Part shown: one piece after another, positions 7,910 through 33,665 of the stretch
How the letters are laid out: each line of letters opens with the position of its first letter
Position numbering within the stretch: the first letter of the stretch is position 1
Assembly (NCBI GenBank): GCA_964358615.1
Contig: CAYHOV010000004.1
Span: 1-37,942, forward strand
DNA length: 37,942 nucleotides
Origin: Candidatus Woesearchaeota archaeon
GTDB lineage: Archaea; Nanobdellota; Nanobdellia; Pacearchaeales; GW2011-AR1
Reading direction: 5' to 3'
Position numbers and translations under genes: made by a program
Notes under the pieces: generated by a model
Database searches by the model: none
Seen by the model: only the letters and a program-made list of their open reading frames with translations
What the model was told of the DNA's origin: nothing

Positions 7910-7946
7910 AGAAATTGCTAAAAGGCCACAATTTCTAATTTCAATT

Positions 7947-8147
7947 TTTGACGAGAAAGTCAAACCCAAAAATTCCAATAGAGAAGTTTACAAAATCTAA
8001 AGAGAATTTTGCAAAAAATAAGAAAGTCAAAATTTCTAACGAGAACTTTGCTGATATTTCCTTCGGAAATCACAATCTTGCAAAGTTCTCTAAACTTCTC
8101 TAATGAGAAGCTTGAAAATCCTTAAATTGGCGAGATTCAAACTTCTC
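7947..8147. repeat. Nested inverted-repeat / hairpin array in the aglB-aglH intergenic region
   Basis: Perfect IRs TAGAGAAGTTTA (7979-7990 / 8091-8102) and GAGAACTTTGC (8041-8051 / 8080-8090). Inner stem ATTTCC-TTC-GGAAAT (8056-8070). Further IRs at 7947-7964 and at 8105-8116 / 8136-8147 (1 mismatch). Confidence 0.75.
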
Positions 8148-8154
8148 TGTAAGA

Positions 8155-8162
8155 TTTAAAAG
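8155..8162 (+). promoter_or_regulatory. TATA box for the aglH-flippase-GT2-GT2 operon
   Basis: TTTAAAAG ends 21 nt before ATG 8184. Confidence 0.6.
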
Positions 8163-8183
8163 TAGCATATTTCTAATTATTTC

Positions 8184-12141: not shown

Positions 12142-12183
12142 AAGTATGGAAAAGCTTTTTAATCGTTATTTTTTAATAATAAA

Positions 12184-13599: not shown

Positions 13600-14555
13600 T
13601 GGAATTTACAATAATTCTTCCCACATATAATAATGAAAAAACAATAGAAGAATGTCTAGAAAGTATTTTTTCTCAAAGATACCCAAAAAAAGAATTTGAA
13701 GTGCTTTTTATCGACGGTGGAAGCAGCGATAGAACGCTTGAGATTGCAAAAAAATATCCAGTCAAGATATTAAAAAATGAAAAAAGAAATGAAGAGGCTG
13801 CGAGAATCCTTGGAATCAGAAAAGCTAAAGGAAAAATATTGGGTTTTGTTGATGCTGACAATGTTCTTGTCGGAAATGACTGGATAAAAAAGATGCTTGA
13901 ACCGTTTAAAGATAAAAATATTTCTTTTGCCGATACGCTTTATTTTGGTTACAGAAAAACTGACTCAATAAAAGTCAGATATCAGGCTTTAATCGGAGGG
14001 GATGATCCGATAATCATGTATCTGGGAAGACATTCAAGATGGTCGTATATCTCAGATAGTTGGACTGATTGTGATCATCAAGATAAAGATTATGGAAACT
14101 ATTTTTTATCAGAATTTCTAGACAAAAATAAAATACCTCCGATGGGCTCAAATGGTTTTCTTGTCAGGACAAACATTGCTAGAAGACTTGTCAAAGATTC
14201 TTTTATTCACTCTGATTTTATATTTGATTTAATAAACAAAGGATATAATTGTTTTGCAAAAGTCAAGACAAGTATTGTGCATAATCAACCAAAATTTTTT
14301 GCAAATAAAGCTCGGAGAATAAAAAGAAGAATAAATAATGAGATAAAAATAAATTATAACTATGGCCTCAGAAAATGGGACCTAATCAAGACAGGAATCT
14401 ATATCTGCATAATCTTGCCAGTTTTCTATGACGCACTAAGGGGCTTTATAAAAAAGCCTGACTTGGCTTGGATTTTTCATCCAATTGCTTGTTTTGGAGA
14501 GTTATTTCAATTTGCATACTATAATATAAAAAGCCAGTTTTTCTTAAAAGTGTAA
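13599..14555 (+). CDS. GT2 glycosyltransferase
   Basis: Motifs IILPTYN, IDGGSSDRT and FVDADN. Confidence 0.9.
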   Translation: MEFTIILPTYNNEKTIEECLESIFSQRYPKKEFEVLFIDGGSSDRTLEIAKKYPVKILKNEKRNEEAARILGIRKAKGKILGFVDADNVLVGNDWIKKMLEPFKDKNISFADTLYFGYRKTDSIKVRYQALIGGDDPIIMYLGRHSRWSYISDSWTDCDHQDKDYGNYFLSEFLDKNKIPPMGSNGFLVRTNIARRLVKDSFIHSDFIFDLINKGYNCFAKVKTSIVHNQPKFFANKARRIKRRINNEIKINYNYGLRKWDLIKTGIYICIILPVFYDALRGFIKKPDLAWIFHPIACFGELFQFAYYNIKSQFFLKV

Positions 14556-14556
14556 T

Positions 14557-15078
14557 ATGGTAAAAAAACTTAATCTGGGAAGCGGTACAGATCACAAACA
14601 AGGATGGGTTAATCTAGATCATAATCGTCGCTATAAAGCAGAAGTTTATCATAATCTTGATAAGTTTCCGTATCCTTTCAAGAATGAAGAATTTGATTAT
14701 ATTTATTGTTCACATGTACTTGAACATGTAGATGATTTGTTTAAAACACTCAAAGAATTATTAAGAATCATCAAGAAAGATGGAATAATCCATCTAAGAG
14801 TTCCTCATTTTTCAAATGGGACGGGATATAATGACTTGGGCCATAAAAGATTTTTTGGGTGGTTTACATTTGATCAAATGGTGATTGAAGATTATTATCA
14901 AAAAAATATAAATTTTAAGATAATCTCGAAAAGATTCAACTTCCTGTCGGAGAATCATAAAATAATTAATTTTATTTTCAGCTGGATATTCAACATCCTG
15001 CCAAAAAGATTTTATGAAAGATTTTTATGCTGGATTTTTCCGGTTGGGGAAATTGAGATATTCTTAAAAAAGAACTAA
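14557..15078 (+). CDS. Short class I SAM-dependent methyltransferase
   Basis: Motifs KLNLGSG, GWVNLD, FPYPF..EEFD, SHVLEH and VPHF. Confidence 0.85.
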   Translation: MVKKLNLGSGTDHKQGWVNLDHNRRYKAEVYHNLDKFPYPFKNEEFDYIYCSHVLEHVDDLFKTLKELLRIIKKDGIIHLRVPHFSNGTGYNDLGHKRFFGWFTFDQMVIEDYYQKNINFKIISKRFNFLSENHKIINFIFSWIFNILPKRFYERFLCWIFPVGEIEIFLKKN

Positions 15079-16778
15079 TTAGGAATAATCATACGATACG
15101 GGTCTATTGGCATACCTGTGATATTTTCTGGCCTTCCAAAAACCCAACTACAATTGACTCTTGAAGCGTTTATAACGGGATATGAATTAAATTTATAGAT
15201 GATAGCCATTGGCCGATTATCTCTAAAAAATACTTTTATAGGAACAAGAGATTCGTTATGTCTCGCCGGATAATCAAACATGTATGGTGGAGTAAATGCG
15301 GGTTCCCAAGGATGTAAAATCATATAATCTGGTTTTATCCTAACAAGTTTGCATTCAAATTCTGTCTCGTTGAAAATAGTTTTGTAACTTGTGGCAGTCT
15401 TTTGGCCTTCAGCAGTCAGCGCGCCAGTCACTTGTTCTGCTAACTCTGTACCAACAAAGAAATCATAGGTTCGTCGATGAGAATAATAACTATTCTGCAC
15501 AATAGAAGCACCAATTATTTTTGAATTTTCCGGAGTATTATATCTTATCCAGAGACCCGTATCCATAACTTCTTTATAGCTGTCTAATTTTACTTTAATC
15601 AACTGATCTGCATGATTCAATTGCTGATATCCTACAAATCCAAGAATAACAAAAATAAGAGTTATTCCAATAAATTTATGATAAGCTTTGGTAAACTCTG
15701 CTATTTTCTCGAGACCAAGTGAAGCAAAGATAAAAATTGGAGGCATCCAAAGAAGTATCCATCTATCGCTTCCACTTTTCATCACAAAAACAAAATATAT
15801 CACTTGGAAAAATAGCCAGACCATCAAAAAAACATATCTATTCGAGGATTTATCTTTTTGTTTAATAAAAAGATCGAACCCTACAAGCAGATTAAAAATA
15901 GAATAGGCCATCCCTGCTAAAAACAAAATCGTCAGAGGCCAACCAATAAACTCGGGAATATAGCTAAACAAAAACCAGGCAGGCTTATCGAAAGTTATTG
16001 TCGCTTTTGTAGAGTATACTGCTGCTGCAGGAAACCAGGAGCCGATGGTCATTTTGTTGAAAACAAAAAATGGAATTAAACAAATTATGCCGATTACTCC
16101 GGCGATCCAACTTGTTTTATCCAAGAAGAATTTATGTTTTTTAATTAAGATAATATACAAGATTATAGAAATTGTTAAGAATGCTGTCGGAAATCTTGTC
16201 AAAAATCCCAAAACTCCAAATATAATCAAAAAATAAAATCCTTTTGGCTTTTCATTTTTTTCATAGTACTCCCAAAAATAGTAGACAGAAATAAGTGCGA
16301 ACATCATCGCAGGAATATCTGTCATGAATCTAAGGCCATAAAATTGAATTACCCAATAAATGCTCGTCAAATAACCTGCAATCAATCCAACTTTTTTATT
16401 AAACAAACTCGAAACGAGAAGATATGTAAATAGGACCAAAAGAATTGAGGGAATAATCTCGGTTGCAAATCTCATCACTGACTCGGGAATGTTAAAATAG
16501 ATAAACGGAACCCAAACTAAAGACATCAAAGGCGGACGCATCGAAAGGAAGTGGCCCCACCATTCAGGAGTCTCAGAAGAGGGCAATGCAAATTCTTTTG
16601 CAAGAGCCAGGTAATCTCCTTCATCCCACCAGGTCGGCTGATTATAAGTAATAGAAAAATAATACAATCTTATTATAACTGTAAAAACCATCAAAAGCAA
16701 AAAGAAAAAATTTAAAGGATCCTTGAGCCAGATTTTAATCTTTTCTTTTCTTTCTTCAATATTCTCCGGATTATCCAT
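15075..16778 (-). CDS. GT-C fold membrane glycosyltransferase (ArnT/PMT-like)
   Basis: WWDEGDY after TM1, plus RPPL, MTDIP and RF motifs. About 11-12 TM segments and a C-terminal extracytoplasmic domain with several N-X-S/T sequons. Confidence 0.85.
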   Translation of the reverse strand: MDNPENIEERKEKIKIWLKDPLNFFFLLLMVFTVIIRLYYFSITYNQPTWWDEGDYLALAKEFALPSSETPEWWGHFLSMRPPLMSLVWVPFIYFNIPESVMRFATEIIPSILLVLFTYLLVSSLFNKKVGLIAGYLTSIYWVIQFYGLRFMTDIPAMMFALISVYYFWEYYEKNEKPKGFYFLIIFGVLGFLTRFPTAFLTISIILYIILIKKHKFFLDKTSWIAGVIGIICLIPFFVFNKMTIGSWFPAAAVYSTKATITFDKPAWFLFSYIPEFIGWPLTILFLAGMAYSIFNLLVGFDLFIKQKDKSSNRYVFLMVWLFFQVIYFVFVMKSGSDRWILLWMPPIFIFASLGLEKIAEFTKAYHKFIGITLIFVILGFVGYQQLNHADQLIKVKLDSYKEVMDTGLWIRYNTPENSKIIGASIVQNSYYSHRRTYDFFVGTELAEQVTGALTAEGQKTATSYKTIFNETEFECKLVRIKPDYMILHPWEPAFTPPYMFDYPARHNESLVPIKVFFRDNRPMAIIYKFNSYPVINASRVNCSWVFGRPENITGMPIDPYRMIIPN

Positions 16779-16799
16779 ATATTTCTTAGATAAACAAGA

Positions 16800-16807
16800 T
16801 TTATAAA
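16800..16807. promoter_or_regulatory. Palindromic TATA box shared by two divergent genes
   Basis: TTTATAAA is self-complementary and lies exactly 21 nt from ATG 16778 (-) and from ATG 16829 (+). Confidence 0.7.
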
Positions 16808-16828
16808 TATAAACTTTTTATTGGGTCT

Positions 16829-17566
16829 ATGGAAAAAGAAAATATTCTAATGAAGGATATTTACAAGAAAAAAGTAACAAAAAATGTATTCAGATATAAA
16901 TGGATATATGAAAATTTTTTAAAAGGAGTCCACGAAAAGAAAATTCTTGAAATCGGCGTAGGCGTCGGAGGGATCATCCAATTCTTAAAAAAAGATAATG
17001 AAGTCATCGGATCAGAAATATCAGACTCTGCAATAAATATCAATAAAGAACTTGGAATAAAAACAATAAAAATAGACCTAGACAATGGCAAGTTTCCGTT
17101 CAAGGACAAATCTTTTGACATCATCATCTTTATAGGAACGATAGAGCATCTGAATAATCCCCAAAACGCAATCAATGAAATAAAAAGACTAATAAGAGAC
17201 GGAGGTAGAATCTTAATAAGCATCCCTAATCCGCTTACAGGCCATTATCAGATATACCCGGGATTATATACTTATAAATATTTTACAGAATATCTAAAAG
17301 TAAATAATTTTAAGGTAGTCTCTTTCAAAAAATATGGCATAAGGCCGCCTCTCTATGATATATTGATGAAAAGAAGATCATTCAATAAAACAGTGAACAA
17401 TCAAACAGAAAATATGGCTCTGGGAAAATTTGTTTACAGACTCTCAAATGGTATCTTTAAATTAAAACCAAAAAGATTTGGATGGAGCTGGATTTTTGAA
17501 GTCCGTTATCTCGGCGATAACAAAAAATATGAAGAATTTATAAAAGAATTCAGTTCTGTATATTAG
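16829..17566 (+). CDS. Class I SAM-dependent methyltransferase
   Basis: Motifs ILEIGVGVG, FPFKDKSFD, IEHL..P and GGRILISIPN. Confidence 0.88.
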   Translation: MEKENILMKDIYKKKVTKNVFRYKWIYENFLKGVHEKKILEIGVGVGGIIQFLKKDNEVIGSEISDSAININKELGIKTIKIDLDNGKFPFKDKSFDIIIFIGTIEHLNNPQNAINEIKRLIRDGGRILISIPNPLTGHYQIYPGLYTYKYFTEYLKVNNFKVVSFKKYGIRPPLYDILMKRRSFNKTVNNQTENMALGKFVYRLSNGIFKLKPKRFGWSWIFEVRYLGDNKKYEEFIKEFSSVY

Positions 17567-17567
17567 T

Positions 17568-19055
17568 ATGAAACCAAAAATATTATTAATAAATCCTTCT
17601 TTAACGGGATTGTTCAGCGCAGGCATCGGTACTGTAAAAGTTCCTCTGGGGCTTGCATATATTGCAGCATATCTTGAAAAATATGGCTATGAAGTAAAGA
17701 TAATCGATTGCGTGGCCAATTATGAAAATGTAAAACACATAAAAAATGACATATATAGAATCGGACTTTCGGAGGATAGACTCGCCCAATCAATCAAAGA
17801 ATATAATCCTCAAATCGTCGGTATAAGCTGCAGTTTCACGATCTATGAAGAAGACAGTTTTAGGATTGCAAAAATAGTAAAAGAAAATTCTGATGCTCTT
17901 GTCGTCGTCGGGGGGGCTCATTCTTCTGCGAATCCCGAATCGGCATTAAAATGCAAAGATATAGACTTAGCAGTAATCGGCGAAGGAGAATTAACTTTTC
18001 TTGAAATCATAAAAAATTATAAAAATTATAAAAAAATAGATGGCATTGCATTTAGAACAAAGAATGGAGTAAAGAAAAACCATGCACATAAATTTATTAA
18101 GGATCTTGATGAAATACCTTTTCCTGCAAGACATCTTCTGCCGATGGAAAAATATCTAAAACATCCTCAAAATTCTATGGCAAATATGAGGGGTCCTACA
18201 ACAGAGATAATCTCTAGCAGGGGATGTCCTTTCACTTGCATATTCTGCTCAATATGCAGTGTCTGGGGCAGGAAATGGAGAGCAAGAAGCGCTAAAAATG
18301 TCGTTGACGAATTAGAACAACTGCAGAAAAATTATGGAATAAGAGAGTTTAGATTTTTCGACGATAATATCTCCTGGAACAAAAAAAGAATGAGCGAAAT
18401 ATGCGATGAAATAATAAAAAGAAAATTAGATATCAGATGGGATACTCCTAATGGGGTAGCGATTGCGACGCTGGATGAAAATATTTTAAGAAAAATGAAA
18501 CAGGCGGGATATTATAAAATCATTATGGGAATTGAGTCTGGAAGTGAAGAGACATTAAGATTTATGAGGAAACCGGTAGGATTGGAACATGCAAGAAAAA
18601 TAATAAAAATATGCAACAAATTAGGAATATGGACTTGGTCAACTTTTGTTATCGGCTTTCCAAATGAAACCCGAGAAGAGATCCAAAAGACGATAGATTT
18701 CGCTAAAAAATCTGGGTTAAACTTTGTAACATTTTACATTGCTCAACCCTATCCTGGAACAGAAATGTATGAAATCTATAGAAAAGAAGGATTGTTAAAA
18801 AAAGGGATCAAAAAAACAAGTACGGTTACGCACACAGAATATGATACTAATTATTTCAAAGCAGAAGAACTAAGAGAAATACAAAAAAAAGCTTATTCTG
18901 AATTCATAAAATATCGACTCATATCTTATCTGAATCCGATAAAATTGTATAATGAATTTTTAAACAGGATAAGAAGTTTTGAAGATTTTTTTTATGTTAT
19001 CCGAATGGGCCTCAATCTTATAGGAAAAGAATACAGCCCGATTTATAAAAAGTAG
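17568..19055 (+). CDS. Cobalamin-binding (class B) radical SAM protein #2
   Basis: Motifs PLGLAYIAA, GGAH, GEGE, SRGCPFTCIFC, DDN, GIESG and PYPGT. Confidence 0.92.
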   Translation: MKPKILLINPSLTGLFSAGIGTVKVPLGLAYIAAYLEKYGYEVKIIDCVANYENVKHIKNDIYRIGLSEDRLAQSIKEYNPQIVGISCSFTIYEEDSFRIAKIVKENSDALVVVGGAHSSANPESALKCKDIDLAVIGEGELTFLEIIKNYKNYKKIDGIAFRTKNGVKKNHAHKFIKDLDEIPFPARHLLPMEKYLKHPQNSMANMRGPTTEIISSRGCPFTCIFCSICSVWGRKWRARSAKNVVDELEQLQKNYGIREFRFFDDNISWNKKRMSEICDEIIKRKLDIRWDTPNGVAIATLDENILRKMKQAGYYKIIMGIESGSEETLRFMRKPVGLEHARKIIKICNKLGIWTWSTFVIGFPNETREEIQKTIDFAKKSGLNFVTFYIAQPYPGTEMYEIYRKEGLLKKGIKKTSTVTHTEYDTNYFKAEELREIQKKAYSEFIKYRLISYLNPIKLYNEFLNRIRSFEDFFYVIRMGLNLIGKEYSPIYKK

Positions 19056-19069
19056 AAAACCTCAAAAAA

Positions 19070-19948
19070 TTATTTTGTACTTTCTACTCTTACCCATATT
19101 TTTTCAAATTTTTTCTGTCTGAGATTAATATCAATGAATATCAGGGCCCAGAGATATAATCTGGAAAAAATCAGGGCAGAGGTATAAAAAAATTCTTTTA
19201 ATGTCTTTGGATAGGCCAAAACATCGAATATGCCTGAACTCTCTTTTGAAAAAGAACGCATTCTTTCTTTTTCCTCGATGAAATATTTTAATTGATTATA
19301 TCCCCCTGCAGAACGCTTTTTTTGTTTTATCCAATCATTAAAATTTGTAGGATATTTAACATAAACCAAAGAACTTGGAGAATAAAGGGTTTTGTAACCT
19401 CGTTCGTGGATCATGTGAGAGATAACTGCGTCGTCGGCCAGAGATTCCTCAGGAATTTTATCTATTATGCCCGATCTAATCGCATAGAGATAGCCAGAAC
19501 ATACAATAACTTTTTTTTCTTTTACCATTTTTTTTCTGACTTTATCGGCAATATCTGTCAGCAGATGAGACCAGAAGCCGAGCATGTTATTTCTCGGATT
19601 TAAGGATATTGGCCGTCCTGTAACTGCTCCGACTCTTTTGTCTTTGAACATTTCTATCATCTGTTTGAGTGAATGTTCGTCGATATATACGTCGCCATCA
19701 CTCAGAATAAGAATATTGCCTTTTGCTTTTTTAAAAGCGAGATTAAGTGCGGCGGGCTTTCCACGACCTTGGTCTTGAATTATTTTTAATTTTTTATTTT
19801 TTATTTTTTTTGCTTCGTCGAGAGTCTCCTTATCGGGAGCAAGAACGAGTATTTCATAGCTTTCCTTAATTTTATTATCTAAAAAAGATCGTATTGCTTT
19901 CTGTATTGTCTTGGGTTCTTTATATGCTGTAAGTATTATGCTTATCAT
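19070..19948 (-). CDS. GT2 glycosyltransferase
   Basis: Motifs GKPAALN, LSDGD, SGYLYAIR, ADD and QKKRS (QxxRW-like). Confidence 0.88.
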   Translation of the reverse strand: MISIILTAYKEPKTIQKAIRSFLDNKIKESYEILVLAPDKETLDEAKKIKNKKLKIIQDQGRGKPAALNLAFKKAKGNILILSDGDVYIDEHSLKQMIEMFKDKRVGAVTGRPISLNPRNNMLGFWSHLLTDIADKVRKKMVKEKKVIVCSGYLYAIRSGIIDKIPEESLADDAVISHMIHERGYKTLYSPSSLVYVKYPTNFNDWIKQKKRSAGGYNQLKYFIEEKERMRSFSKESSGIFDVLAYPKTLKEFFYTSALIFSRLYLWALIFIDINLRQKKFEKIWVRVESTK

Positions 19949-21057
19949 CTTAATCTTCTAAATAATTCTAAATAGGATTTAATTAATTTTTCCCAGGAGT
20001 AAAATTTGGCATCGGAAGATGCTTTTTTCTGGATGTTAATATTTCCTTTAATATTCTTTGCGATAATCTCTGCTAGGGCCTGAAAATCGCCTATATCAAA
20101 TAAAAAACCATTTTTTCTGTCCTGGATTATCTCTTTTCCTCCGTCGGTTTTACTCGAAATTACAATCTTCACACGGGACATTGCTTCAAGCAAAACTTGG
20201 GGCATTGCTTCTCGCTTACTTGGAAGAACAAATATTTTATGGTTGTCGATTAAACTTATTTTTTTTGAGAGGTCGTAAATCGGAGGAAATACCCGGATAT
20301 TTTTTATTTTTTCTGTTTTTATGATATTTTTTAGATTGATCAAATAATCTTCTTCTGCACTACCGACGATTGAGAAATTTATTTGGGGCAAATGTTTTGC
20401 AGCGAATATTAAACTCTCGAGATTTTTAACCGGTGCGATCCTTCCTAAGAATAGGACGTCTTTATGGGGCTTTATCTTTTTTTGAATAAAAAACTGTGAC
20501 GGCAAACCATTGGGAATGTAGGCAATTTTTTCTTTTTTTACACCTAGATTAAGCAAATAGGGAATTTCCCATTTTGTTATTGCAATAATTTTTTCAAAAT
20601 AATTTATTCTTGGTTTGACTTTAATGGAATTATAAATCGATGTGATCATGCCGAGGGGAAATCTTCGCTTAACATTAAATGGTGCGTGAGTCACAAGGTA
20701 GCAGGGAATATTATATTTTTTAGATAATTTCAGGGCCTTGAATGAATGAGGATGAAGCAGGTGAGTTATCACGATGTCGGGAGAATATTCTTGAAAGGCC
20801 TTAGCAAAATTAAAAGAATAAACATTTTTTGAGGCAAGAGAAGATTTTGATTTAAATCTATTTATCTTTAAATCGTCGATGTTTTCTGACTCGCAGGCAG
20901 TGTTTCCTGTACCTTTCTCGATATTTGAGGAAAATATGCAGACCTCATGGCCTAACTTACTAAATTCAAGACTTTCTTGCATAACTCTGGCCCAGACTCC
21001 ACAAATGCCTGCTGAAAATGGGCAGATCTCAAGGATTTTGAGCTTGGTTTTCTTCAT
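19945..21057 (-). CDS. GT4 (GT-B) glycosyltransferase
   Basis: Motifs IPNG, FLGRIAPVKN and FVLPSKREAMPQVLLEAM (EX7E). Confidence 0.92.
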   Translation of the reverse strand: MKKTKLKILEICPFSAGICGVWARVMQESLEFSKLGHEVCIFSSNIEKGTGNTACESENIDDLKINRFKSKSSLASKNVYSFNFAKAFQEYSPDIVITHLLHPHSFKALKLSKKYNIPCYLVTHAPFNVKRRFPLGMITSIYNSIKVKPRINYFEKIIAITKWEIPYLLNLGVKKEKIAYIPNGLPSQFFIQKKIKPHKDVLFLGRIAPVKNLESLIFAAKHLPQINFSIVGSAEEDYLINLKNIIKTEKIKNIRVFPPIYDLSKKISLIDNHKIFVLPSKREAMPQVLLEAMSRVKIVISSKTDGGKEIIQDRKNGFLFDIGDFQALAEIIAKNIKGNINIQKKASSDAKFYSWEKLIKSYLELFRRLR

Positions 21058-21078
21058 AAAAATATTAGGAGAATCAGC

Positions 21079-21086
21079 TTTAAAAA
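21079..21086. promoter_or_regulatory. Single TATA box centred between divergent genes
   Basis: TTTAAAAA (+) / TTTTTAAA (-) lies exactly 21 nt from ATG 21057 (-) and from ATG 21108 (+). Confidence 0.7.
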
Positions 21087-21107
21087 GTCGTTTATTTTTA
21101 TTTAAAC

Positions 21108-22148
21108 ATGAACCTCAAATACTTGATAAAAGAAGCAAAATATTATAGAAAATTGGACGGAGGCCTCAAAAGAGTATTTTGGAAATTTCTGTTTTACAAA
21201 ACTCCGCTGTCAAGACTGGTCAATACAAAAGCATATAATTATTTTTATAAAAAAAGAATGGAAAAATTCACGAAGGAACATAGGCCAACAATTCTTCAGA
21301 TAGAGAATACAAATATCTGCAATGCTCGGTGCATCATGTGCCCGCATGTAAATATGAAACGAAAGCAGAAGATAATGAAATTTGAGGATTTTAAAAAAAT
21401 TGTCGACGATTCTATGGCAAGTTATCCTAGCATAAGACTGTTAGTAATCACTGGTTTTGGAGAACCTCTGGTTGATCAGGGAATTGTTGAAAAAATAGAT
21501 TATGTAAATAAAAAATATCCTAATCTGCAGATCGATATATACACTAATGGCGGACTATTAAAAAAAGAATTGAGTGATGAATTACTTGAGAAAAAAATAC
21601 ACAAAATAAATTTCAGCATAAATGCGCTTGAAAAAGATTACAAGAAAATAATGGGGCTGAATTATGATAGTGTAAGTAAAAATATAATCTATTTTATGGA
21701 TAAAAGAAAAAGACTAAACCGAGAATATCCTCTTGTAAATATATCTATGATGATATTAAAACAAAATAAAGAAGATATACAAAAATTCATAGAACTCTGG
21801 GAAAAAAGAGCGGATTCTGTAATGACTTATATGCCTCTTGAATGGGCTGGTGGGAAAAAAGTAGATACTGTCGAAGAAGTCAAGATGAAAAAGAAAAGAT
21901 GGCCTTGCATCCCGCTTTGGCAAAGTATCATGGTCGATGTTGCGGGCGATATAATAATGTGCTGCCAAGATTATGAATCTAAAGTCACTTTTGGAAATGC
22001 TCTGAAACAGCCAATAAAAGAAATAATGAACTCGGAGAGATTCAAAAGAATACGGGAGCTTCAATTAAAGGGAATCTATAATATGCCTGTATGCAACACT
22101 TGCGATAATTGGGTCAATTCGAGTTTTAGCTGGTGGGAATATAATTAA
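21108..22148 (+). CDS. Radical SAM protein with SPASM/twitch-type C-terminal domain
   Basis: Motifs CNARCIMC, GFGEPL and TNG, with C-terminal PC..LW...GDIIMCCQD...GN...CNTC. Confidence 0.9.
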   Translation: MNLKYLIKEAKYYRKLDGGLKRVFWKFLFYKTPLSRLVNTKAYNYFYKKRMEKFTKEHRPTILQIENTNICNARCIMCPHVNMKRKQKIMKFEDFKKIVDDSMASYPSIRLLVITGFGEPLVDQGIVEKIDYVNKKYPNLQIDIYTNGGLLKKELSDELLEKKIHKINFSINALEKDYKKIMGLNYDSVSKNIIYFMDKRKRLNREYPLVNISMMILKQNKEDIQKFIELWEKRADSVMTYMPLEWAGGKKVDTVEEVKMKKKRWPCIPLWQSIMVDVAGDIIMCCQDYESKVTFGNALKQPIKEIMNSERFKRIRELQLKGIYNMPVCNTCDNWVNSSFSWWEYN

Positions 22149-22900
22149 TTCTTTTTTCCTACGAGAACCAGAGAATAGGCAAAATACTGATCTAAAAAAG
22201 AACCTTTTTCTTTATTTACAGAATCTATATCTTTTTTTCTAAAAATCCTAAATGGATTAATAAATCTAAATGAGCTGAAAAAAGAATCTCCGAAAAATTC
22301 TGGTTTTAAAAATCCGAGAGCTTTGCATATTTTTATAAATTCTTTTTTTGAGAATGGATATTCTTCGCCAAATTTCCAAATTCCAAGAAGTTTAGAAGCA
22401 AACATAAATAACTGATAGGGAAAATTATATTTATGGGGCACAGAGATTATCGTAACTCCGTGTTGATTTATTAAATCAAAATGTGATTTTACAATCTGTA
22501 TTCTCTCTTTGCCCTGGAAGTGCTCTGCTAAACCAAATGAAAGAGAAACGTCGTATTTCTTGAGAATATTCTTCGGAAGATTTAATGCGTCGGCTAAAAT
22601 ATATTTTGCATCACATCGATTTCTCTGAAAAAATTCCCGACTTCTTTCAAGAGCTTTTTTTGAATAATCTAGGATCGTTATTTTTGCTCCGCGTTTTGCA
22701 AAAAGCAAAGCGTTTGTTCCTGCTCCTGCGCCTATTTCGATAACATTTAAATTTTTAAAAGTCCCAAATTTTTTAATAATAACTTTTTCTATTCTCTGCC
22801 AACGAATGCTATTTTCCTCGACGACTAAATTATATCTGTCTTCTTTCTCTGAAGTCTCTTTCCAAAGATTATCCCAAAGTTCAGGAGTATTCTTCTGCAT
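22145..22900 (-). CDS. Class I SAM-dependent methyltransferase
   Basis: Motifs VIEIGAGAG, LDYS, ADALNL and SFGLAEHF. A TATA box (TTTAAATA, minus strand 22922-22929) lies 21 nt upstream. Confidence 0.88.
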   Translation of the reverse strand: MQKNTPELWDNLWKETSEKEDRYNLVVEENSIRWQRIEKVIIKKFGTFKNLNVIEIGAGAGTNALLFAKRGAKITILDYSKKALERSREFFQRNRCDAKYILADALNLPKNILKKYDVSLSFGLAEHFQGKERIQIVKSHFDLINQHGVTIISVPHKYNFPYQLFMFASKLLGIWKFGEEYPFSKKEFIKICKALGFLKPEFFGDSFFSSFRFINPFRIFRKKDIDSVNKEKGSFLDQYFAYSLVLVGKKN

Positions 22901-22995
22901 AAAATTCCGAGACTACTCGGGTATTTAAATTGTTTTAATCTTAAACATAAATCCAATACAATAATGCTTTTAAACACAAAATTATCAGGCATTTA

Positions 22996-24327
22996 ATGAA
23001 ACGCGAGAAAGTATTATTAGTAAGGGCGCCGAATATTTTCAAGTCAGCGCAATGGAAAAAACAAGGAGTTTTAAGAACTCCTACAAATTTGGCCCTACTC
23101 GGATCATATATCCGAGAACATGGAGCATATGAACCAGAAATTCTTGATTTTGAATTAGATGATTCTAAGGATTTAGCAGATATTGCTGGAAAGATTGTGT
23201 CTAGAAATGCTAGATATGCGGGATTTTCAACGCTTACTCCACGTTTTCCTACGATAATGAGGATCTGCGGGGAATTAAAAAAAATAGATCCTGCGATTAA
23301 AACGATTTTGGGCGGACCGCATATTTCCGGAAGGCCACAAGATTGTAGATATCCTGGAATTGACTATGGAATTGTCGGAGAGGGTGAACAGGGATTTTTG
23401 GCGTTGTTAAATAATCTTGTAGCAGGAAGAGATGTTTCAAAAACGCCTAATTTAGTATCTCGAACAGCCGACGGAGAAATTGTTGTCAATCCTAAAGCGC
23501 AGTTTATAAAGGATTTGGATTCATTGCCTCTGCCTGCGTGGGATCTGTTGAATATGGGCGAATACAAAGACCCTCCATTTTTTGGCGATGAGCCCCATGC
23601 AGGAATTTTTACGACGAGAGGCTGTCCGCAGAATTGTATCTTTTGCGCATCAGGAGTCACCTGGGAAAGAAGATTGAGATCCAGATCAGTGGACAATGTA
23701 ATGGAAGAAATCCACAAACTCGCAGATAATTTTGGAACTAAAAATCTTTATTTTTATGACGATCATTTTGCGGCAAAACGTTCGAGAGCTTTAGATCTTT
23801 GTGATCGGCTCGCTTCTGAAAGACCCGGTACGAAATATATTGTGCAAATCAGAGCAGACTCTGTAAATGAAGAGCTTGCACAGTCTCTTAATAGATCTGG
23901 ATGTATTTCTGCTGCTCTTGGAATAGAAAGTGGAAATGAAGAAATGTTGAGAGCAATCAATAAGAGAGAAACAAAAGATGAAATGCGAATTGCTGTAAAA
24001 ATGCTGAAATCTGCTGGAGTGCCAATCACGACAAGCTATATAATCGGATTGCCAGGAGACACTCATGAGACTATAAAAGAAACTCTTGATTTTGCCCGCG
24101 AGTTAAATACAGAACAAATGAAATTCATGCTTCTTACTCCTGTTCCTGGAACAGATGTCTATAGAATGGCTGTTGAACGAGGACTGTTAGACCCTGAAAA
24201 TCTTGAGCAAATGGAAAAAACAACTTTCTACGATGCTACGGCTGTAAATTTATCTGCGGTCTCTACTGAAGACCTATTACGCTATCAGGATATTGCATAT
24301 CGTGAGTTAGATAGGAAGGGGGTATAA
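22996..24327 (+). CDS. Cobalamin-binding (class B) radical SAM protein #3
   Basis: Motifs GGPHIS, GEGE, TRGCPQNCIFC, YDD, GIESG and PVPGT. Confidence 0.92.
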   Translation: MKREKVLLVRAPNIFKSAQWKKQGVLRTPTNLALLGSYIREHGAYEPEILDFELDDSKDLADIAGKIVSRNARYAGFSTLTPRFPTIMRICGELKKIDPAIKTILGGPHISGRPQDCRYPGIDYGIVGEGEQGFLALLNNLVAGRDVSKTPNLVSRTADGEIVVNPKAQFIKDLDSLPLPAWDLLNMGEYKDPPFFGDEPHAGIFTTRGCPQNCIFCASGVTWERRLRSRSVDNVMEEIHKLADNFGTKNLYFYDDHFAAKRSRALDLCDRLASERPGTKYIVQIRADSVNEELAQSLNRSGCISAALGIESGNEEMLRAINKRETKDEMRIAVKMLKSAGVPITTSYIIGLPGDTHETIKETLDFARELNTEQMKFMLLTPVPGTDVYRMAVERGLLDPENLEQMEKTTFYDATAVNLSAVSTEDLLRYQDIAYRELDRKGV

Positions 24328-24328
24328 C

Positions 24329-24843
24329 TTGAAAAAACTAAACTTCGGATCAGGAGAAAAGATAATGGGGGGGAGTTTGATAACGCCGATCTAGATGATC
24401 ATTGTGGCGCTAATATTTGTTTTGATTTTAATAAATTTCCTTACCCGATTAAAAGCAATACTTATGACTATATCCTCGCAAATCATGTTCTTGAACATTT
24501 AAAAGATCCCGAAGACGCTATTTGGGAATTATGCAGAATAGCAAAACCAAATGCAATACTGCAAATAAATGTTCCTCATTTCAATTCAGAAGGTGCATTC
24601 TGTCTGGGGCATAGAAATTTCTGGAATGAAACTAGTTTTATTCATTTAGAAACTCCGGATGGGAATTGGAATCCAATTAGAGATTGCAAGCTTAAAATAA
24701 TAGGATTGAAAATAATCCCCTCTATATTTGGGAAATTGATACCAACATATTGGCTGAGAAGAAAAGTAAGTCTATTGCTTCGAGGAGTATATAAACATAT
24801 GGAAGTAAAATTAAAGATAATCAAAAATTCCCATCAAAGGTAA
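24329..24843 (+). pseudogene. Short class I methyltransferase frameshifted at a G7 tract (paralog of 14557-15078); possibly phase-variable
   Basis: TTG 24329 opens MKKLNFGSGEKIMGG, then hits TAG at 24392-24394. The -1 frame from 24373 gives EFDNAD...KFPYPIK..YDYILANHVLEH...VPHF...LGHRNF to TAA 24841-24843. One extra G in the run 24367-24373 restores a 171-aa ORF. Confidence 0.85.
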
Positions 24844-24887
24844 ATACTTGAATATCTGCTTTTTTACGGTTGTCAGTTCTCGCTAGA

Positions 24888-24895
24888 TTTATATA
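24888..24895 (+). promoter_or_regulatory. TATA box for GT25 gene
   Basis: TTTATATA ends 21 nt before ATG 24917. Confidence 0.6.
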
Positions 24896-24916
24896 ATTCT
24901 CTATCTCCGATTAATC

Positions 24917-25783
24917 ATGGAAATTAAAGGACTTGAAAAAATCTACATAATCCATTATGTAAAACTTGTTGAAAGGCGGGCGTATCTTGAAAGAAGATTA
25001 AGAGAACTTGGCTTGGAAGATTATGCAGAATGGGTTATCTCTACAAAAGATGGCAGTTTTCCGAAAAAAGAATTGGCAATGCAGGACTCGAGTGAGCAGG
25101 CAATGGCTGAAAGAAAAAAATATCTTGGAGAAAAAATCCCGCCAATCGGCAGAATCGATATGATAATGATGCTCCAACATATCCAGGTCCTAAGAAAAAT
25201 AGCGAGCAATAAAAAAGAAAATGTTTCGATGGTCTTTGAGGATGATGTGCTTCTCGACGACGATTTTCCAGATAAACTAAGGGAAAGTGTAGACAAACTC
25301 AGAAATATTGAATGGGATATTTGCTATACTGATAAAGGATCGCTGCTTGTTGAGCCAAATGTAAGAAAAGAAAAAAATTCTTTGTTAACCCTGTATGAAT
25401 CACGAGATAAAAGAGCAAACACTACGGGCTCGTTTTTAATAAAATCTGCTGGTGCAAAATTACTTCTGAAACTTATGAAAAAAATAACTCTTGGGCCAGA
25501 TATGGAATTGACCTATGTGCAGAAAAAAAATAATTTAAACGTTTACTGGACTGTGCCTTTTTTGACTCATCAGGGTTCTATCGAGGAAGTCTATCAGTCC
25601 AATGTAAGAAGGGGTTCGATTGCCGGACGAGTAATAAAAATAACAAAAAAAATAGAAAAATTCAGCCCTGCTTTGGCAATGCTAATCTCGAGGTCTGCTA
25701 ATTTTACAATGAAACTCGCGAATAATTCTAGATTTTTTTCTGTTTTGAAAAATAAAGTGAAAAGATTGATGAAACTTCAGTAG
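24917..25783 (+). CDS. GT25-like glycosyltransferase
   Basis: Motifs IYIIHY.KLVERR, QH, VFEDDV, TGSFLI...GAK and D...P.LTHQGS. Confidence 0.75.
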   Translation: MEIKGLEKIYIIHYVKLVERRAYLERRLRELGLEDYAEWVISTKDGSFPKKELAMQDSSEQAMAERKKYLGEKIPPIGRIDMIMMLQHIQVLRKIASNKKENVSMVFEDDVLLDDDFPDKLRESVDKLRNIEWDICYTDKGSLLVEPNVRKEKNSLLTLYESRDKRANTTGSFLIKSAGAKLLLKLMKKITLGPDMELTYVQKKNNLNVYWTVPFLTHQGSIEEVYQSNVRRGSIAGRVIKITKKIEKFSPALAMLISRSANFTMKLANNSRFFSVLKNKVKRLMKLQ

Positions 25784-29626: not shown

Positions 29627-30172
29627 ATGAACCGTGGTCTTTTTCTAGACAGGGACGGTGTTATTTGTCAAGAAAGAAATTTATTTTATGGAGGAACGCC
29701 GGTGACTCGAGCAGAAGATCTTGAATTTTTTCCACGCACTGAAGAAGCTTTTCAGCGTATGGCTCGGTTGGATTTTAAATTAGTAATTGTCACGAATCAG
29801 TCGGCAATCGGTCGAGGCGAACTCAGCAGAGAAGAATTTGAACGGATGAATGAAAAAATAAATCAGATGTTAGGAAAATATGGGAGAAGATTTGATGGGA
29901 TCTATGTCTGCCCGCATGTTCCTGAAGAAAACTGCGATTGCAGAAAACCAAAAACAGGAATGTTACTTAGAGCAGAAAGAGAACTTGAAATAAGTCTGCG
30001 AGATTCTATAGTAATCGGCGACAAAACTTCGGATATTAAAATGGGTATCGATGCTGGATGCAGAACCGGATTGGTAAAAACAGGTTATGGTGGGCGGGAT
30101 AAACTTTGCAAAGTAGAACCAGATTTTATTTCAGATGATCTTTATTCTGCTTTGACGGAGATTGGAAAATGA
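29627..30172 (+). CDS. gmhB: D-glycero-D-manno-heptose 1,7-bisphosphate phosphatase (HAD IIIA)
   Basis: Motifs FLDRDGVI, VTNQS, CPH....CDCRKPKTGM and IGDKTSD. Confidence 0.9.
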   Translation: MNRGLFLDRDGVICQERNLFYGGTPVTRAEDLEFFPRTEEAFQRMARLDFKLVIVTNQSAIGRGELSREEFERMNEKINQMLGKYGRRFDGIYVCPHVPEENCDCRKPKTGMLLRAERELEISLRDSIVIGDKTSDIKMGIDAGCRTGLVKTGYGGRDKLCKVEPDFISDDLYSALTEIGK

Positions 30173-32235
30173 AAGCGGTGATACTCGCCGGAGGGCTTGG
30201 GACTCGACTAAGAGCTGTTATCGGAGATGAAACTCCAAAACCTATGGCGCTTATTGCGGGAAAACCTTTTTTAGAACATCAAATACGTTTATTAAAAAAA
30301 CAGGGGCTTGAGGATATAGTATTAGCTGTCCATCATCGGGCAGGTATGATAAAGACTTTTTTTGGAAATGGAAGACGACACGGCGTCAATATTGCATATG
30401 CGGAAGAAGAAATTCCATTGGGAACTGCGGGTGCAATAAAAAATGCGCAGGGAATTATAGGAGATGAAAGATTTATGGTTTTAAATGGAGATACTTATGC
30501 GGGAATAAAATTCGAAGATTTTTTAAGATTCCACGACGCTAGGGGGAGAAAGGCTACGATGGCTGTGACTGAAGCAGGAGACCCGCAACATCAGGAAGTT
30601 GTAGAAATTGAAAATGGATTGGCAGTCAGATTCCATGAAAGAGGAAAATGTCCTGCAGGCATTGTGCCAATGATAAATAGTGGAGCTTATATTTTTGAAT
30701 CAGAAATATTCAAGAGAATTGATCCGGGCAAAAATGTTTCTCTTGAAAGAGAAGTATTTCCGAATCTTGTTGAGCAAAGAGCTCTTGCAGCTTTTCCGTA
30801 TGCAGGATATTTTATGGATATTGGTCGGCCTGAAACCTATGGTCAGTTCAAAAGAGATATTATCGGCGGATGGTTAATGAGAGGAGAAAATAGTATACGG
30901 GAAGCCTTGGGCAGAATGGGAAAAAATGAAGAGGGTCTTGTTTTTGTTGTAGACGAAAAAGAACGGTTAATTGGAGTTGTAACTCGTGCATTTATAGATC
31001 AGGCTTTCATCGACGAAAAAGCTGACCTGGGAGACTGTATTAAAAAAATAATGCAACCACCTTTAGCAGTTGCTCATGAGGGAGATAGTCCTGAAAAAAT
31101 TGCAGAGATCATGCTTCCGAGAACAAATAGGCTTCCGATTTTAAATGCAGATGGCCAAATTGTTGATATGGTCTACAGACAAGAAGTAATAGAAATTGCA
31201 GACGCTCCGGTGTTCAGGGCAATATCTCCGTTGAGAATAAGTTTTTCAGGCGGAGGAACAGATAAGGAAGATTATTTTACACAATTTGGAACAGGAATCG
31301 TGATAAATGCTACTATCGATAAATATTGTCATGCGACTGCAAGAATGAGACATGATAGTCTGATAAGAATAAATCCGGGACAAGAAAATGAAGAAGTTCT
31401 TGATCTAAGAAAAAGAAAATTAGAGTATGGCGGGCAATGGGATTTGGCCAAGGCAGTGATAAATACTATGAAACCGGATTTTGGTTTTGATTTACATGTT
31501 CGAAATGATGTTCCTCCTGGAAGAGGGCTTGGTTCTTCGGGAAGTTTTGCAGTGATGTTAACAGAACTGTTGACACAAATGCGAAGAAAATATTTAACCA
31601 ATGATCAGGTTGCAGAAATTGCAAGAAGAGCAGAAGTTGAAGAATTAAAAATCGGCGGCGGGTGGCAAGACCAGTATGCTGCAAAAGTCGGAGGATTTAA
31701 TCTGATAGAATTCTCAGCAGGGAGAATTATTCCGTCGTCATTGGCATTATCTCCGGAAGTAGTAAGTGAGCTTGAGGAGAGCTTGGTTTTGTGTTACGTC
31801 GGAAAAACGCATAATTCTGGCGAGGTGCACAGAGACCAGGAAAAACATTTTGCTGAAGAAAAAGAAAAAGTAAGAAGAAGTTTAGAACATCTAAAAGATA
31901 TTGCAATAAGAATAAGAGATTCGTTGGTTTCTAAAAATCCTGCAAGAATAAGAGATTTGGGAGATTGCCTACATGAAGCTTGGGCGCTAAAAAGAGAACT
32001 TGGAGGATCTATAACTAATCCGGAAATAGATCGGCTATATGATGTTGGTAGAATGGCGGGAGCAACTGGTGGAAAATTGCTTGGGGCGGGAAACGGAGGA
32101 TATGTTCTTTTTTTTGTTCCTCCTGAAAAAAGATATTCTCTGGTAAAATCTATTTCAGCGTATACTCCTGAAATATTAGATTTCAAATTTGAAAGACAAC
32201 CGGTTGGAACGAGGGTTTGGTCGCCGCGGATATAA
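30169..32235 (+). CDS. Three-domain fusion: sugar-1-phosphate nucleotidyltransferase (HddC-like) + CBS pair + GHMP kinase (HddA-like heptose-7-phosphate kinase)
   Basis: N-terminus: LAGGLGTRL, PKPM, PLGTAGA, LNGD and FMDIG.PE. Middle: VVDEKERLIGVVT...IM...LPILNADGQIVD (CBS). C-terminus: PLRISFSGGGTD, PPGRGLGSSG, GGWQDQY and GGKLLGAGNGG. Confidence 0.9.
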   Translation: MKAVILAGGLGTRLRAVIGDETPKPMALIAGKPFLEHQIRLLKKQGLEDIVLAVHHRAGMIKTFFGNGRRHGVNIAYAEEEIPLGTAGAIKNAQGIIGDERFMVLNGDTYAGIKFEDFLRFHDARGRKATMAVTEAGDPQHQEVVEIENGLAVRFHERGKCPAGIVPMINSGAYIFESEIFKRIDPGKNVSLEREVFPNLVEQRALAAFPYAGYFMDIGRPETYGQFKRDIIGGWLMRGENSIREALGRMGKNEEGLVFVVDEKERLIGVVTRAFIDQAFIDEKADLGDCIKKIMQPPLAVAHEGDSPEKIAEIMLPRTNRLPILNADGQIVDMVYRQEVIEIADAPVFRAISPLRISFSGGGTDKEDYFTQFGTGIVINATIDKYCHATARMRHDSLIRINPGQENEEVLDLRKRKLEYGGQWDLAKAVINTMKPDFGFDLHVRNDVPPGRGLGSSGSFAVMLTELLTQMRRKYLTNDQVAEIARRAEVEELKIGGGWQDQYAAKVGGFNLIEFSAGRIIPSSLALSPEVVSELEESLVLCYVGKTHNSGEVHRDQEKHFAEEKEKVRRSLEHLKDIAIRIRDSLVSKNPARIRDLGDCLHEAWALKRELGGSITNPEIDRLYDVGRMAGATGGKLLGAGNGGYVLFFVPPEKRYSLVKSISAYTPEILDFKFERQPVGTRVWSPRI

Positions 32236-32337: not shown

Positions 32338-33123
32338 ATGATAAAAAGAATGTTTAGTCTTTTTGTTCCATGCTATAATGAAGAAAAATGCATTGGAAAG
32401 AATGTTGTAAAAATCTACGAGGTCTTAAAAAATTATCAAAAGAAAAATAAAAATTTTAAATTTGAGATCATAGTCGTCAATGATTGTTCAACAGATAGGA
32501 CCAAGGAAATTGTAGATAAGGTTTCTAAAGAAATAAAGGAAATAAAAGCAATACATTATTCTGGAGATAAACCTACAAGAAGAGAAAATCTTATACAGAG
32601 TTTTAAATATGCTAAAGGAGATATTGTTGGTTTTACTGATGCTGACCTTTCTACAGATATTACAGATCTTCCTCGTTTATATAATGAAGTAGATGATGAC
32701 AATACTATTGTTATTGGAGATAGATATCATCATGAAAGCAAAGTTCAAAGAAGTATAAAGAGATGGGTAATAAGTAAAACTCTTAACTATTCTACAAGAA
32801 TACTTTTTTTTGATTGGACACGTCCGTTTAAATTCACCAGCGGCAGTTGGGATCATTTTTGCGGATTCAAAGCATTCACAAAAAAAACAATACTTAGACT
32901 ATTAGAGTATACTGGGGTCGGCAATGAGCAAAGAAGCATGTGGTGGGATGCTGAAATGTTAATCTATGCTGAAAAACTAGGATATAAAATAAAAAGAATT
33001 CCTGTGACCTGGGTAGAGGGAAAAGAAACTAAATTAAAACCTCGAAGAGAAATAAATATAATTCTTTATATGATTAAACTTATGATAAGAATGAAATGGA
33101 TGAAGTCAACAAAGCTTGGTTAG
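32338..33123 (+). CDS. GT2 glycosyltransferase (polyprenol-phosphate glycosyltransferase-like)
   Basis: Motifs VPCYNEE, VNDCSTD, FTDADLS, D..CGFKAF and WWDAE. Start 32338 was chosen from the TATA at 32309-32318. Confidence 0.9.
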   Translation: MIKRMFSLFVPCYNEEKCIGKNVVKIYEVLKNYQKKNKNFKFEIIVVNDCSTDRTKEIVDKVSKEIKEIKAIHYSGDKPTRRENLIQSFKYAKGDIVGFTDADLSTDITDLPRLYNEVDDDNTIVIGDRYHHESKVQRSIKRWVISKTLNYSTRILFFDWTRPFKFTSGSWDHFCGFKAFTKKTILRLLEYTGVGNEQRSMWWDAEMLIYAEKLGYKIKRIPVTWVEGKETKLKPRREINIILYMIKLMIRMKWMKSTKLG

Positions 33124-33665
33124 GTGGAGATCTTAATTTTTATTTTAAATATAAAAGAAAAATTATAGAGAGAAAGATAAAGGGTAAATGTTTAAATGTA
33201 GGTTGCGGGGGCCATATTATTCCTGGAGCAGTCAATATCGACGAGAATGCAACAAATCTCCCTTATAAAGATAATTCTTTTGATACAGTGATACTCTCGG
33301 ATGTAATAGAACATATAAAAGATTGGGAAAAGGCTCTAGATGAAGCGATACGCGTCTCAAAAAATAAAGTGATAATAACTGTTCCTGCATATATGTGGCT
33401 ATGGTCCAACTATGACAAAATGCTCGGACACTATCGAAGATATGAAGAAAAAGATATAGATAGGTTTTTAAATAAATATCCGGATGTTAAATATACTGTG
33501 AGTTATCTTTTTGGACCAACTCTGCCATTATTGTGGTTCAGGAAGTTTGGCAGCGGAAAAACTCCAAAACTTCCGGGATTCATAGACGATTTACTCTATG
33601 CAGTATCTCATCTAAAAATGCCTTTTGGTTCGACGATGATGATTGAAATTACAAAAAACAAATGA
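33096..33665 (+). CDS. Class I SAM-dependent methyltransferase
   Basis: Motifs LNVGCG, LPYKDNSFD, DVIEH and TVPA...LWS.YD...GHYRRY. Confidence 0.88.
   Translation: MDEVNKAWLGGDLNFYFKYKRKIIERKIKGKCLNVGCGGHIIPGAVNIDENATNLPYKDNSFDTVILSDVIEHIKDWEKALDEAIRVSKNKVIITVPAYMWLWSNYDKMLGHYRRYEEKDIDRFLNKYPDVKYTVSYLFGPTLPLLWFRKFGSGKTPKLPGFIDDLLYAVSHLKMPFGSTMMIEITKNK

Follow-up and report, generated by a model that had tools for sequence, protein, structure and literature searches.

Background

Phase variation mediated by repeats is regarded as a bacterial trait, and the closest described counterparts of the locus considered here are capsule genes of Campylobacter jejuni. Strain NCTC11168 is reported to carry 29 poly-G/C tracts that stand out from the base composition, eight of them in the CPS (capsular polysaccharide) and LOS (lipooligosaccharide) clusters; cj1426 is described as a poly-G phase-variable heptose 6-O-methyltransferase gene that switches at ~2-3 x 10^-2, and cj1420 as likewise phase-variable (PMC8437040). 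Here we analyze a gene for a class I S-adenosylmethionine (SAM) methyltransferase that lies in a glycan cluster of a small-genome archaeon and is divided between two reading frames at a run of seven G residues (G7). The gene occupies positions 24329-24843 of contig CAYHOV010000004.1 (Candidatus Woesearchaeota archaeon, assembly GCA_964358615.1); the entire contig, 37,942 bases long, was analyzed and is called the window below. A preliminary description of this DNA had proposed that the run reversibly switches the methylation of a surface glycan. We find the gene, the tract and the frame change as described, and we lean, at about an even chance, to a recent, unprogrammed lesion that leaves the gene off.

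Other precedents concern shorter runs and other outcomes. In Listeria monocytogenes, inlA is reported to undergo a reversible frameshift at a short A7/A6 tract, recurrently in nature; the survey in the same paper took in 18 archaeal genomes statistically and describes poly(G)/poly(C) tracts as under-represented in general and not concentrated toward 5' ends (Orsi et al. 2010, PMC2831843). For the herpesvirus thymidine kinase, slippage on a 7-G run is reported to yield some product despite a frame-breaking indel (PMC5009743). A 2025 review, in which a repeat length beyond the expectation from composition marks a contingency locus, treats archaea only as a future direction for repeat-mediated phase variation (PMC11868660), and the literature matches listed for archaeal cases, as judged by titles and the openings of abstracts, gave only statistical surveys and reviews.

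A methyltransferase gene divided between two frames

The interval between 24329 and 24843 and its immediate surroundings contain the following parts:

24367-24373, + strand: G7 homopolymer at which the frame changes, 38 nt from the start of the gene (codons 13-15 of ~171)
24329-24394, + strand: frame A of the broken methyltransferase, with a TTG start, 15 genuine N-terminal codons (MKKLNFGSGEKIMGG) that include the GxG SAM motif, six off-frame codons and the stop TAG at 24392-24394
24373-24843, + strand: frame B of the broken methyltransferase, with 156 codons and the stop TAA at 24841-24843, free of internal stops and keeping all conserved family residues
22996-24327, + strand: upstream B12-binding radical SAM gene (443 aa; Pfam Radical_SAM 94.4 bits, B12-binding 62.9 bits)
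24384-24409, + strand: small hairpin, 10 nt 3' of the G7 tract, tested as a candidate frameshift stimulator

Frames A and B make up a whole, full-length class I SAM methyltransferase gene (24329-24843, + strand), whose TTG start lies one base past the TAA of the B12-radical-SAM gene. Frame B is open from 24328 to its TAA and from 24373 reads EFDNADL... over 156 residues; it also lacks the GxG SAM motif and, having no ATG, GTG or TTG before 24706, cannot be started or expressed alone. The tract is phased G_GGG_GGG in frame A and lies inside the open reading frame (ORF), where unit changes of its length would toggle the frame. Lengths of 5, 8 or 11 are in frame and the present G7 is not; a one-base shortfall is the most economical reading of the lesion, even though G5 and G11 are in frame as well. 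On these points the preliminary description proved accurate: the 0.5-kb "gap" is a complete methyltransferase, with Pfam matches and with both halves matching intact relatives; its only visible lesion is the G7 near the 5' end, at exactly the position given; and a G8 allele would encode the 171 aa announced, (24843-24329+2)/3 being 172 codons including the stop.

The frame-B part matches Pfam Methyltransf_11 with 32.3 bits (cut-off 21.2) and Methyltransf_23 with 31.2 bits (cut-off 27), and no NCBIfam model matched the broken methyltransferase. A search of 5.8 billion clustered proteins, including those of the Logan assemblies, covered lengths of 85-273 aa and gave 21 candidates, of which 17 are relatives at E <=0.001. 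The closest, P0004, is an intact protein of 167 aa with 74% identity. All 11 homologous proteins examined are intact, and they start with MKKLNFGxG, the peptide that is encoded by frame A. The window copy keeps 9 of the 9 invariant columns of a 13-sequence family alignment (A1), which together with 156 stop-free codons in DNA of 35% GC identifies the interval as a gene and not noise. The paralogy to 14557-15078 noted in the preliminary description is borne out as well:

14557-15078, + strand: intact paralogue of 173 aa in the same cluster (BLASTP 37% identity over 120 aligned columns, E 4e-20; Pfam Methyltransf_11)

A more distant paralogue, 29% identical, is found at 33096-33665. As a separate observation, a 35%-identical homologue in a genome of the same order (G038:C8:4234-4683, locus L006) has one internal TAA and may be another broken copy.

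Frame A encodes motif I (LNFGSG), and frame B has near its start the acidic DNAD from the end of strand 2, so that the two motifs stand in different frames. A structure model was made of the homologue P0004 and not of the broken protein (predicted local distance difference test, pLDDT, 85.9; predicted template modeling score, pTM, 0.83). The modeled protein has a strand at residues 3-5, a loop at 6-16 and a strand at 17-20 within a Rossmann-like methyltransferase fold, and its top Foldseek matches are all SAM methyltransferases, among them 3cc8 (E 2.6e-7, TMq 0.67) and 3l8d (TMq 0.66). According to the model, the loop that holds the tract connects the GxG motif to the acidic end of strand 2. 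The spacing from GxG to Asp is 11 residues in most homologues and 12, 13 or many more in some, and the predicted values are 12 for a G8 allele and 11 for a G5 allele; this suggests that the tract site tolerates changes of length and that a G8 or G5 product would be tolerable. Clues to the substrate were sought in solved structures, where only generic class I methyltransferases matched. At the nine homologous loci examined, the neighbors include glycosyltransferases of families GT1 and GT4, GDP-mannose dehydratases, B12-radical-SAM enzymes, one aminotransferase and further methyltransferases. Judging by this gene content, the family is one of glycan clusters and travels with genes of glycan synthesis, and from the gene neighborhood only we infer that a glycan is the substrate.

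Support for the G7 tract

Contigs of four public runs, X1-X4 (two samples of one study, labelled as DNA, 'DNA?', with none recorded as RNA), were aligned to 5500-25400 of the window. One contig of run X1 crosses 24268-24970 at depth 6.1 and one contig of run X3 crosses 24018-24469 at depth 3.1, both with 0 mismatches and 0 gaps; the contigs are unbroken at the G7 tract. No indel is listed in the contigs of any of the four runs, coverage of the site in X4 being uncertain. The four runs are probably the source reads of this metagenome-assembled genome (MAG) itself and hence serve as a test of the assembler, not of the platform; their library type is unrecorded. Two further G7 tracts of the window, which had been pointed out as in-frame controls, do exist, are in frame and are read as G7 in X1:

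5886-5892, + strand: control G7 tract, in frame (W-G-G) inside the 909-aa STT3/AglB-like gene 5180-7909; X1 contig 5500-6927, 0 gaps
17910-17916, + strand: control G7 tract, in frame (V-V-G-G-A) inside the B12-radical-SAM gene 17568-19055; X1 contig 17245-18628, 0 gaps

The first of these genes matches NCBIfam archaeo_STT3 with 94 bits, below the 450-bit cut-off. Of the six G7 runs in the 851-kb genome, three lie within ORFs and in frame, two fall between genes and one, at 24367-24373, breaks a frame. Runs of A or T up to length 9 are plentiful (~350 of length 8-9) and stand beside dense intact ORFs.

Gaps between genes were surveyed for other broken genes. The survey listed 104 gaps without ORFs of at least 100 aa, and the 172-codon frame of the methyltransferase is the longest start-less open frame among them; the runner-up, of 161 codons, has no Pfam match. 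Thirteen of the 104 gaps and two G7-run regions, 15 loci in total, were taken for closer analysis, and this partial survey found no second broken gene among 29 open pieces in 11 gaps, which were small whole genes or belonged to no family. The small whole genes include MazG, DUF3850, MazE/ParE pairs, Alba and ribosomal protein S17e; the MazE-like and ParE-like toxin-antitoxin genes lie in gaps G000:C2:8250-10250 (L118) and G000:C16:16000-17400 (L125). One weak, partial cytidylyltransferase-like piece was seen as well. An Rfam scan of the 15 loci gave one 5S rRNA and six tRNAs, in three loci. A genome scan for homopolymers whose change by +/-1 or +/-2 fuses open frames returned 290 rows, mostly of neighboring genes; its design misses the target gene, and it was set aside as uninformative.

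The two intergenic G7 runs, G000:C7:24639-24645 (L128) and G000:C10:7472-7478 (L127), differ in their surroundings. One follows a ribosomal protein S9-like gene and precedes an ATG by 14 nt, and it resembles a ribosome-binding site; the other is part of a GC-rich stretch ahead of a RadC-like gene, and Rfam gave no match to it. The S9-like and RadC-like names come from a reading of the translations. Elsewhere in the window, two substitutions, A>C at 8302 and G>A at 8306, both within the GT4-family gene 8184-9200, occur in contigs of X3 and X4 and not in those of X1 and X2; the X3 and X4 contigs also skip short stretches near 8332-8502, and these two runs seem to contain a second strain or a relative.

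Run lengths, homologous loci and alleles

Runs of G or C in the genome number 204 of length 5, 25 of length 6 and 6 of length 7, with none longer. Base composition predicts 7.5 runs of length >=7 at zero order, and Markov models predict 5.9 (third order) and 4.5 (fifth order), against the 6 observed; for length >=8, 0.55-1.3 are expected and 0 observed. Genome-wide, there is no excess of G/C runs over base composition of the kind that marks hypermutable repeats. Within the window, runs of length >=6 number 4, versus 1.4 expected.

A profile scan of metagenomes with alignment A1 yielded 71 homologous loci, all <=58% identical. The N-terminal region is readable in 64 of them, none more than 56% identical and several being near-identical pairs of one another, and the other seven are without that part of the gene. 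None of the 64 loci has a tract or a frame shift at the site: all are single-frame, and the longest nearby G/C run is 5. No in-frame allele of this species was present among the 17 matches in the clustered proteins. The search for close relatives gave one distant locus in genome contigs and 0 in a first metagenome scan, and the exact-flank pattern had 0 matches in genome contigs.

G/C runs of length >=8 do occur in 31 of 41 family genomes. In 30 sampled loci of relatives, one per genome (L084-L113), such tracts either belong to the frame of a long ORF, often a Gly-rich one, or precede a start codon by a short distance, with no clear case of a gene split by a tract. The idea that tracts of length >=8 split genes as a family trait was dropped, none of the 30 clearly separating two long frames. 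Some relatives are rich in tracts: G025 and G030 have ~10 distinct ones each, G019 has a 15-mer and G004 a run of >40. The upstream tracts, of which G10 in L086 and C9 in L090 are examples, are placed 10-15 nt before start codons and could tune expression.

Host genome and glycan cluster

The MAG to which the window belongs comprises 851,393 bases in 63 contigs, is ~70% complete and has 35.3% GC; the window itself, at 34.5%, lies slightly under this value. One protein matches the archaeal-type SecY model above its cut-off, and an STT3/AglB-like oligosaccharyltransferase and an archaetidylinositol-phosphate-synthase-like protein match theirs below the cut-offs; taken together, these matches mark the host as archaeal. 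Genomes of relatives measure 0.4-1.4 Mb, and the runs that carry the sequence are labelled as groundwater metagenome. The host is best described as a small-genome, DPANN-like groundwater archaeon.

The methyltransferase is surrounded by glycosyltransferases of several families, a flippase-like protein, sugar-nucleotide enzymes and the AglB-like protein. This AglB-linked cluster, with its GmhB-, HddC- and HddA-like genes, agrees with the earlier placement of the gene in an archaeal surface-glycan locus. It includes four B12-binding radical SAM genes (12184-13599, 17568-19055, 22996-24327 and 36212-37690), one SPASM radical SAM gene (21108-22148) and at least five class I methyltransferase genes, and is an unusually methylation-rich glycan locus. 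A gene at 30169-32235 encodes a 688-aa protein that joins an HddC-like nucleotidyltransferase to a CBS domain and an HddA-like GHMP kinase, and a GmhB-like phosphatase gene (29627-30172) adjoins it. GmhB, HddC and HddA are the best NCBIfam matches of these proteins, all below the curated cut-offs, and no SIS-type isomerase was found among the window ORFs scanned. The gene content suggests a GDP-heptose-type pathway in a DPANN-like archaeon. The earlier claim that the locus has the same heptose pathway as C. jejuni is plausible, since the three kinds of genes are present, and falls short of proof, since the matches lie below the cut-offs.

Domains of mismatch repair proteins were also sought. 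Neither MutS_V nor NucS_C was found in this 70%-complete genome, and among the 41 family genomes MutS_V exceeds its cut-off in three and NucS_C in four, the NucS_C matches lying in long multi-domain frames. By these domain matches, the family seems to be without canonical mismatch repair, which makes slippage plausible.

Interpretation of the lesion

The reading that we favor, with roughly even confidence, is a recent, unprogrammed, one-off slippage lesion that leaves the gene off, either as a young pseudogene or as a loss-of-decoration variant that has spread in the population, and not an evolved switch. Replication slippage in the G run would have left it at length 7, with G8 to G7 as the likeliest step and G5 to G7 as a less likely one. 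Ribosomes starting at TTG 24329 would read 15 correct codons and stop at TAG 24392-24394; the GxG motif would be separated from the remainder of the protein, with loss of the methyl decoration. The lesion would now dominate the sampled population, and reversion by chance could occur in a lineage without recognizable mismatch repair. The lesion is young, as the 156 codons after it are free of additional damage.

Two alternatives deny that the gene is simply off. That the true sequence is G8 and the gene intact, G7 being an error of sequencing or assembly, is highly improbable: homopolymers are the classic site of indel errors, this is a low-coverage MAG of 63 contigs at contig depth ~3-6, and the runs, as its probable source, are not independent of a systematic platform bias, yet a second assembler yields G7 in at least two runs with 0 indels listed across the four, and a systematic undercall of G8 as G7 would break frames elsewhere, whereas three of the four coding G7 runs are in frame, the A/T runs of length 8-9 coexist with dense intact ORFs and the partial gap survey gave no second broken gene. 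The caveat of the preliminary description that a homopolymer error would look identical is largely answered by the gap-free X1 and X3 contigs, platform bias staying outside their reach; the frameshift at G7 is probably a real chromosomal lesion, and an assembly error is improbable. Recoding, in which the DNA is G7 and some full-length enzyme is made by -1 ribosomal slippage or by an RNA polymerase that adds a G, be it a programmed low set-point or an adventitious leak, we regard as very unlikely. The run in frame A is phased exactly as an X_XXY_YYZ heptamer, a purely formal likeness to a shift site, and slipping by -1 would yield the G8 protein. The homologous loci speak against a programmed site, as such sites are normally conserved and this one is missing from 64 of 64 loci; the two-frame layout is not conserved either, all of these loci being single-frame and 11 of 11 proteins intact. 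A GGAG-containing stretch lies ~10 nt upstream of the run and the small hairpin 10 nt downstream, but the upstream GGAG consists of codons of the conserved G-S-G-E motif, and the hairpin is no better than shuffles: the fold of 24374-24450 has a minimum free energy of -10.1 kcal/mol against a shuffle mean of -9.39 (z -0.28), and 81 of 200 shuffles are as good. The hairpin was accordingly rejected as a frameshift stimulator. Precedents described in PMC5009743 include low-level compensatory frameshifting on the 7-G run of the herpesvirus thymidine kinase and -1 frameshifting in archaeal viruses and probably in archaeal Mg-chelatase genes, whereas the archaeal shift sites listed there have A-rich second codons. 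Of the alternative of -1 slippage on G_GGG_GGG raised earlier, the phasing stands, and neither a stimulatory structure nor conservation supports it; a trickle of slippage is quite possible under any reading.

A phase-variable contingency locus, ON at G8 (possibly G5) and OFF at G7 or G6, with the sampled population mostly OFF, is an alternative that we consider rather unlikely. The population would then carry surface glycan in methylated and unmethylated forms, of use against viruses or in attachment to hosts. Several observations favor it and weigh against a simple one-off lesion. The tract lies 38 nt from the start, on the coding strand, one step from an in-frame length; the gene, of a dispensable class, encodes a putative glycan decorator and belongs to the AglB-linked cluster that has HddA-, HddC- and GmhB-like genes; and frame B is undamaged. 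Three of the six G7 runs of the genome fall in a contig that makes up 4.46% of it (binomial P 0.0016, post hoc). The genome is streamlined, with almost no other broken genes, and the sole visible one, a surface-glycan gene broken on a G tract, agrees with a selected hotspot as well as with chance. Conservation of the tract can be judged to a limited extent, no same-genus genome being present among the 61 relatives searched and the best non-self match being 56%. The contigs have a k-mer depth of ~3-6, at which a G8 allele in less than about one quarter of the reads would be invisible, and bridging contigs are explicit for one sample only, run X2 of the second sample having a bin depth of 4.55 at the site and no indel row. 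A switch would also accord with the failure to find recognizable mismatch repair, with a lineage-specific tract, as contingency tracts often are, with the functional class described for C. jejuni cj1426 (PMC8437040), and with the reported reversibility of a short tract, A7/A6 of Listeria inlA (PMC2831843). Against it, G7 is short of the usual hypermutable range, as the preliminary description itself had cautioned for G7/G8, run counts equal the expectation from composition with none of length >=8, the contigs of the four runs show no length variant and the ON allele is absent among the proteins searched. Moreover, at least one of the two other cluster runs, the G7 at 17910, codes for a Gly-Gly (VVGGAHS) that recurs in another B12-radical-SAM gene of the window, 22996-24327 (ILGGPH), and none of the 30 sampled tracts of length >=8 in relatives clearly splits two long frames. 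The reversible ON/OFF glycan methylation put forward at first is therefore not upheld, with no G/C excess, a tract in 0 of 64 loci, no length variant and no in-frame allele; phase variation is not supported by these tests, several of which point away from it, but they are of low power, and the idea stands unproven rather than refuted. The uniform G7 of the contigs, in which minor alleles would be invisible, leans toward the simple young pseudogene that the preliminary description had associated with such a result.

Implications

As it stands, the locus is one more gene broken by homopolymer slippage. Its value for annotation is that the 0.5-kb "gap" represents a frameshifted methyltransferase gene and not intergenic DNA. 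DPANN archaea live attached to hosts and under pressure from viruses, and if a switch were real, a switchable glycan decoration would be biologically meaningful for them. A polymorphism in tract length, if true, would make this the first repeat-mediated phase variation in Archaea. A bolder proposal goes further, namely that a DPANN-like archaeon uses a short poly-G run as a slipped-strand ON/OFF switch of one methyl mark on its AglB-dependent surface glycan, that the other two G7 runs of the cluster, in the oligosaccharyltransferase and B12-radical-SAM genes, are further switchable sites, that the tracts are shorter than bacterial ones since mismatch repair is missing, and that this is the first such system in Archaea; we judge it unlikely.

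Comparison with known systems

The parallel with the poly-G switches of cj1420 and cj1426 was drawn correctly in the preliminary description (PMC8437040). As described for the C. jejuni capsule genes, a G run lies near the 5' end of a gene for a SAM methyltransferase that, in the archaeon, would act on a surface glycan, and a one-base change toggles the frame; the archaeal cluster also holds genes of the GDP-heptose type (HddA-, HddC- and GmhB-like). The archaeal tract differs in having only seven Gs, in a genome where run counts equal the expectation from composition and none reaches 8, and in showing no length polymorphism in the contigs of the four runs. Its host is archaeal, the only families that the target matches are generic class I methyltransferases, and its likeness to cj1426 is drawn from published descriptions.

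Listeria inlA offers a parallel in tract length, as a run of seven bases close to the 5' end carries a frameshift in a gene that is dispensable and related to the surface. Unlike the present case, that work concerns poly(A)/poly(T) tracts, and its survey is described as covering archaeal genomes statistically, with no single locus. In the herpesvirus thymidine kinase, an indel in a run of ~7 Gs likewise breaks the frame, but that system is a viral and eukaryotic one, and its leak is reported as experimentally shown, whereas the structure downstream of the archaeal tract is not significant.

Ordinary young pseudogenes that arise by homopolymer slippage in repair-poor, reduced genomes form the remaining comparison. 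They differ from the present case in that this genome has almost no other broken genes in the gaps examined, so that general decay is not evident. The locus shares with them a single-step indel at the longest class of G runs, the lack of further decay in the gene and a genome in which MutS and NucS were not found.

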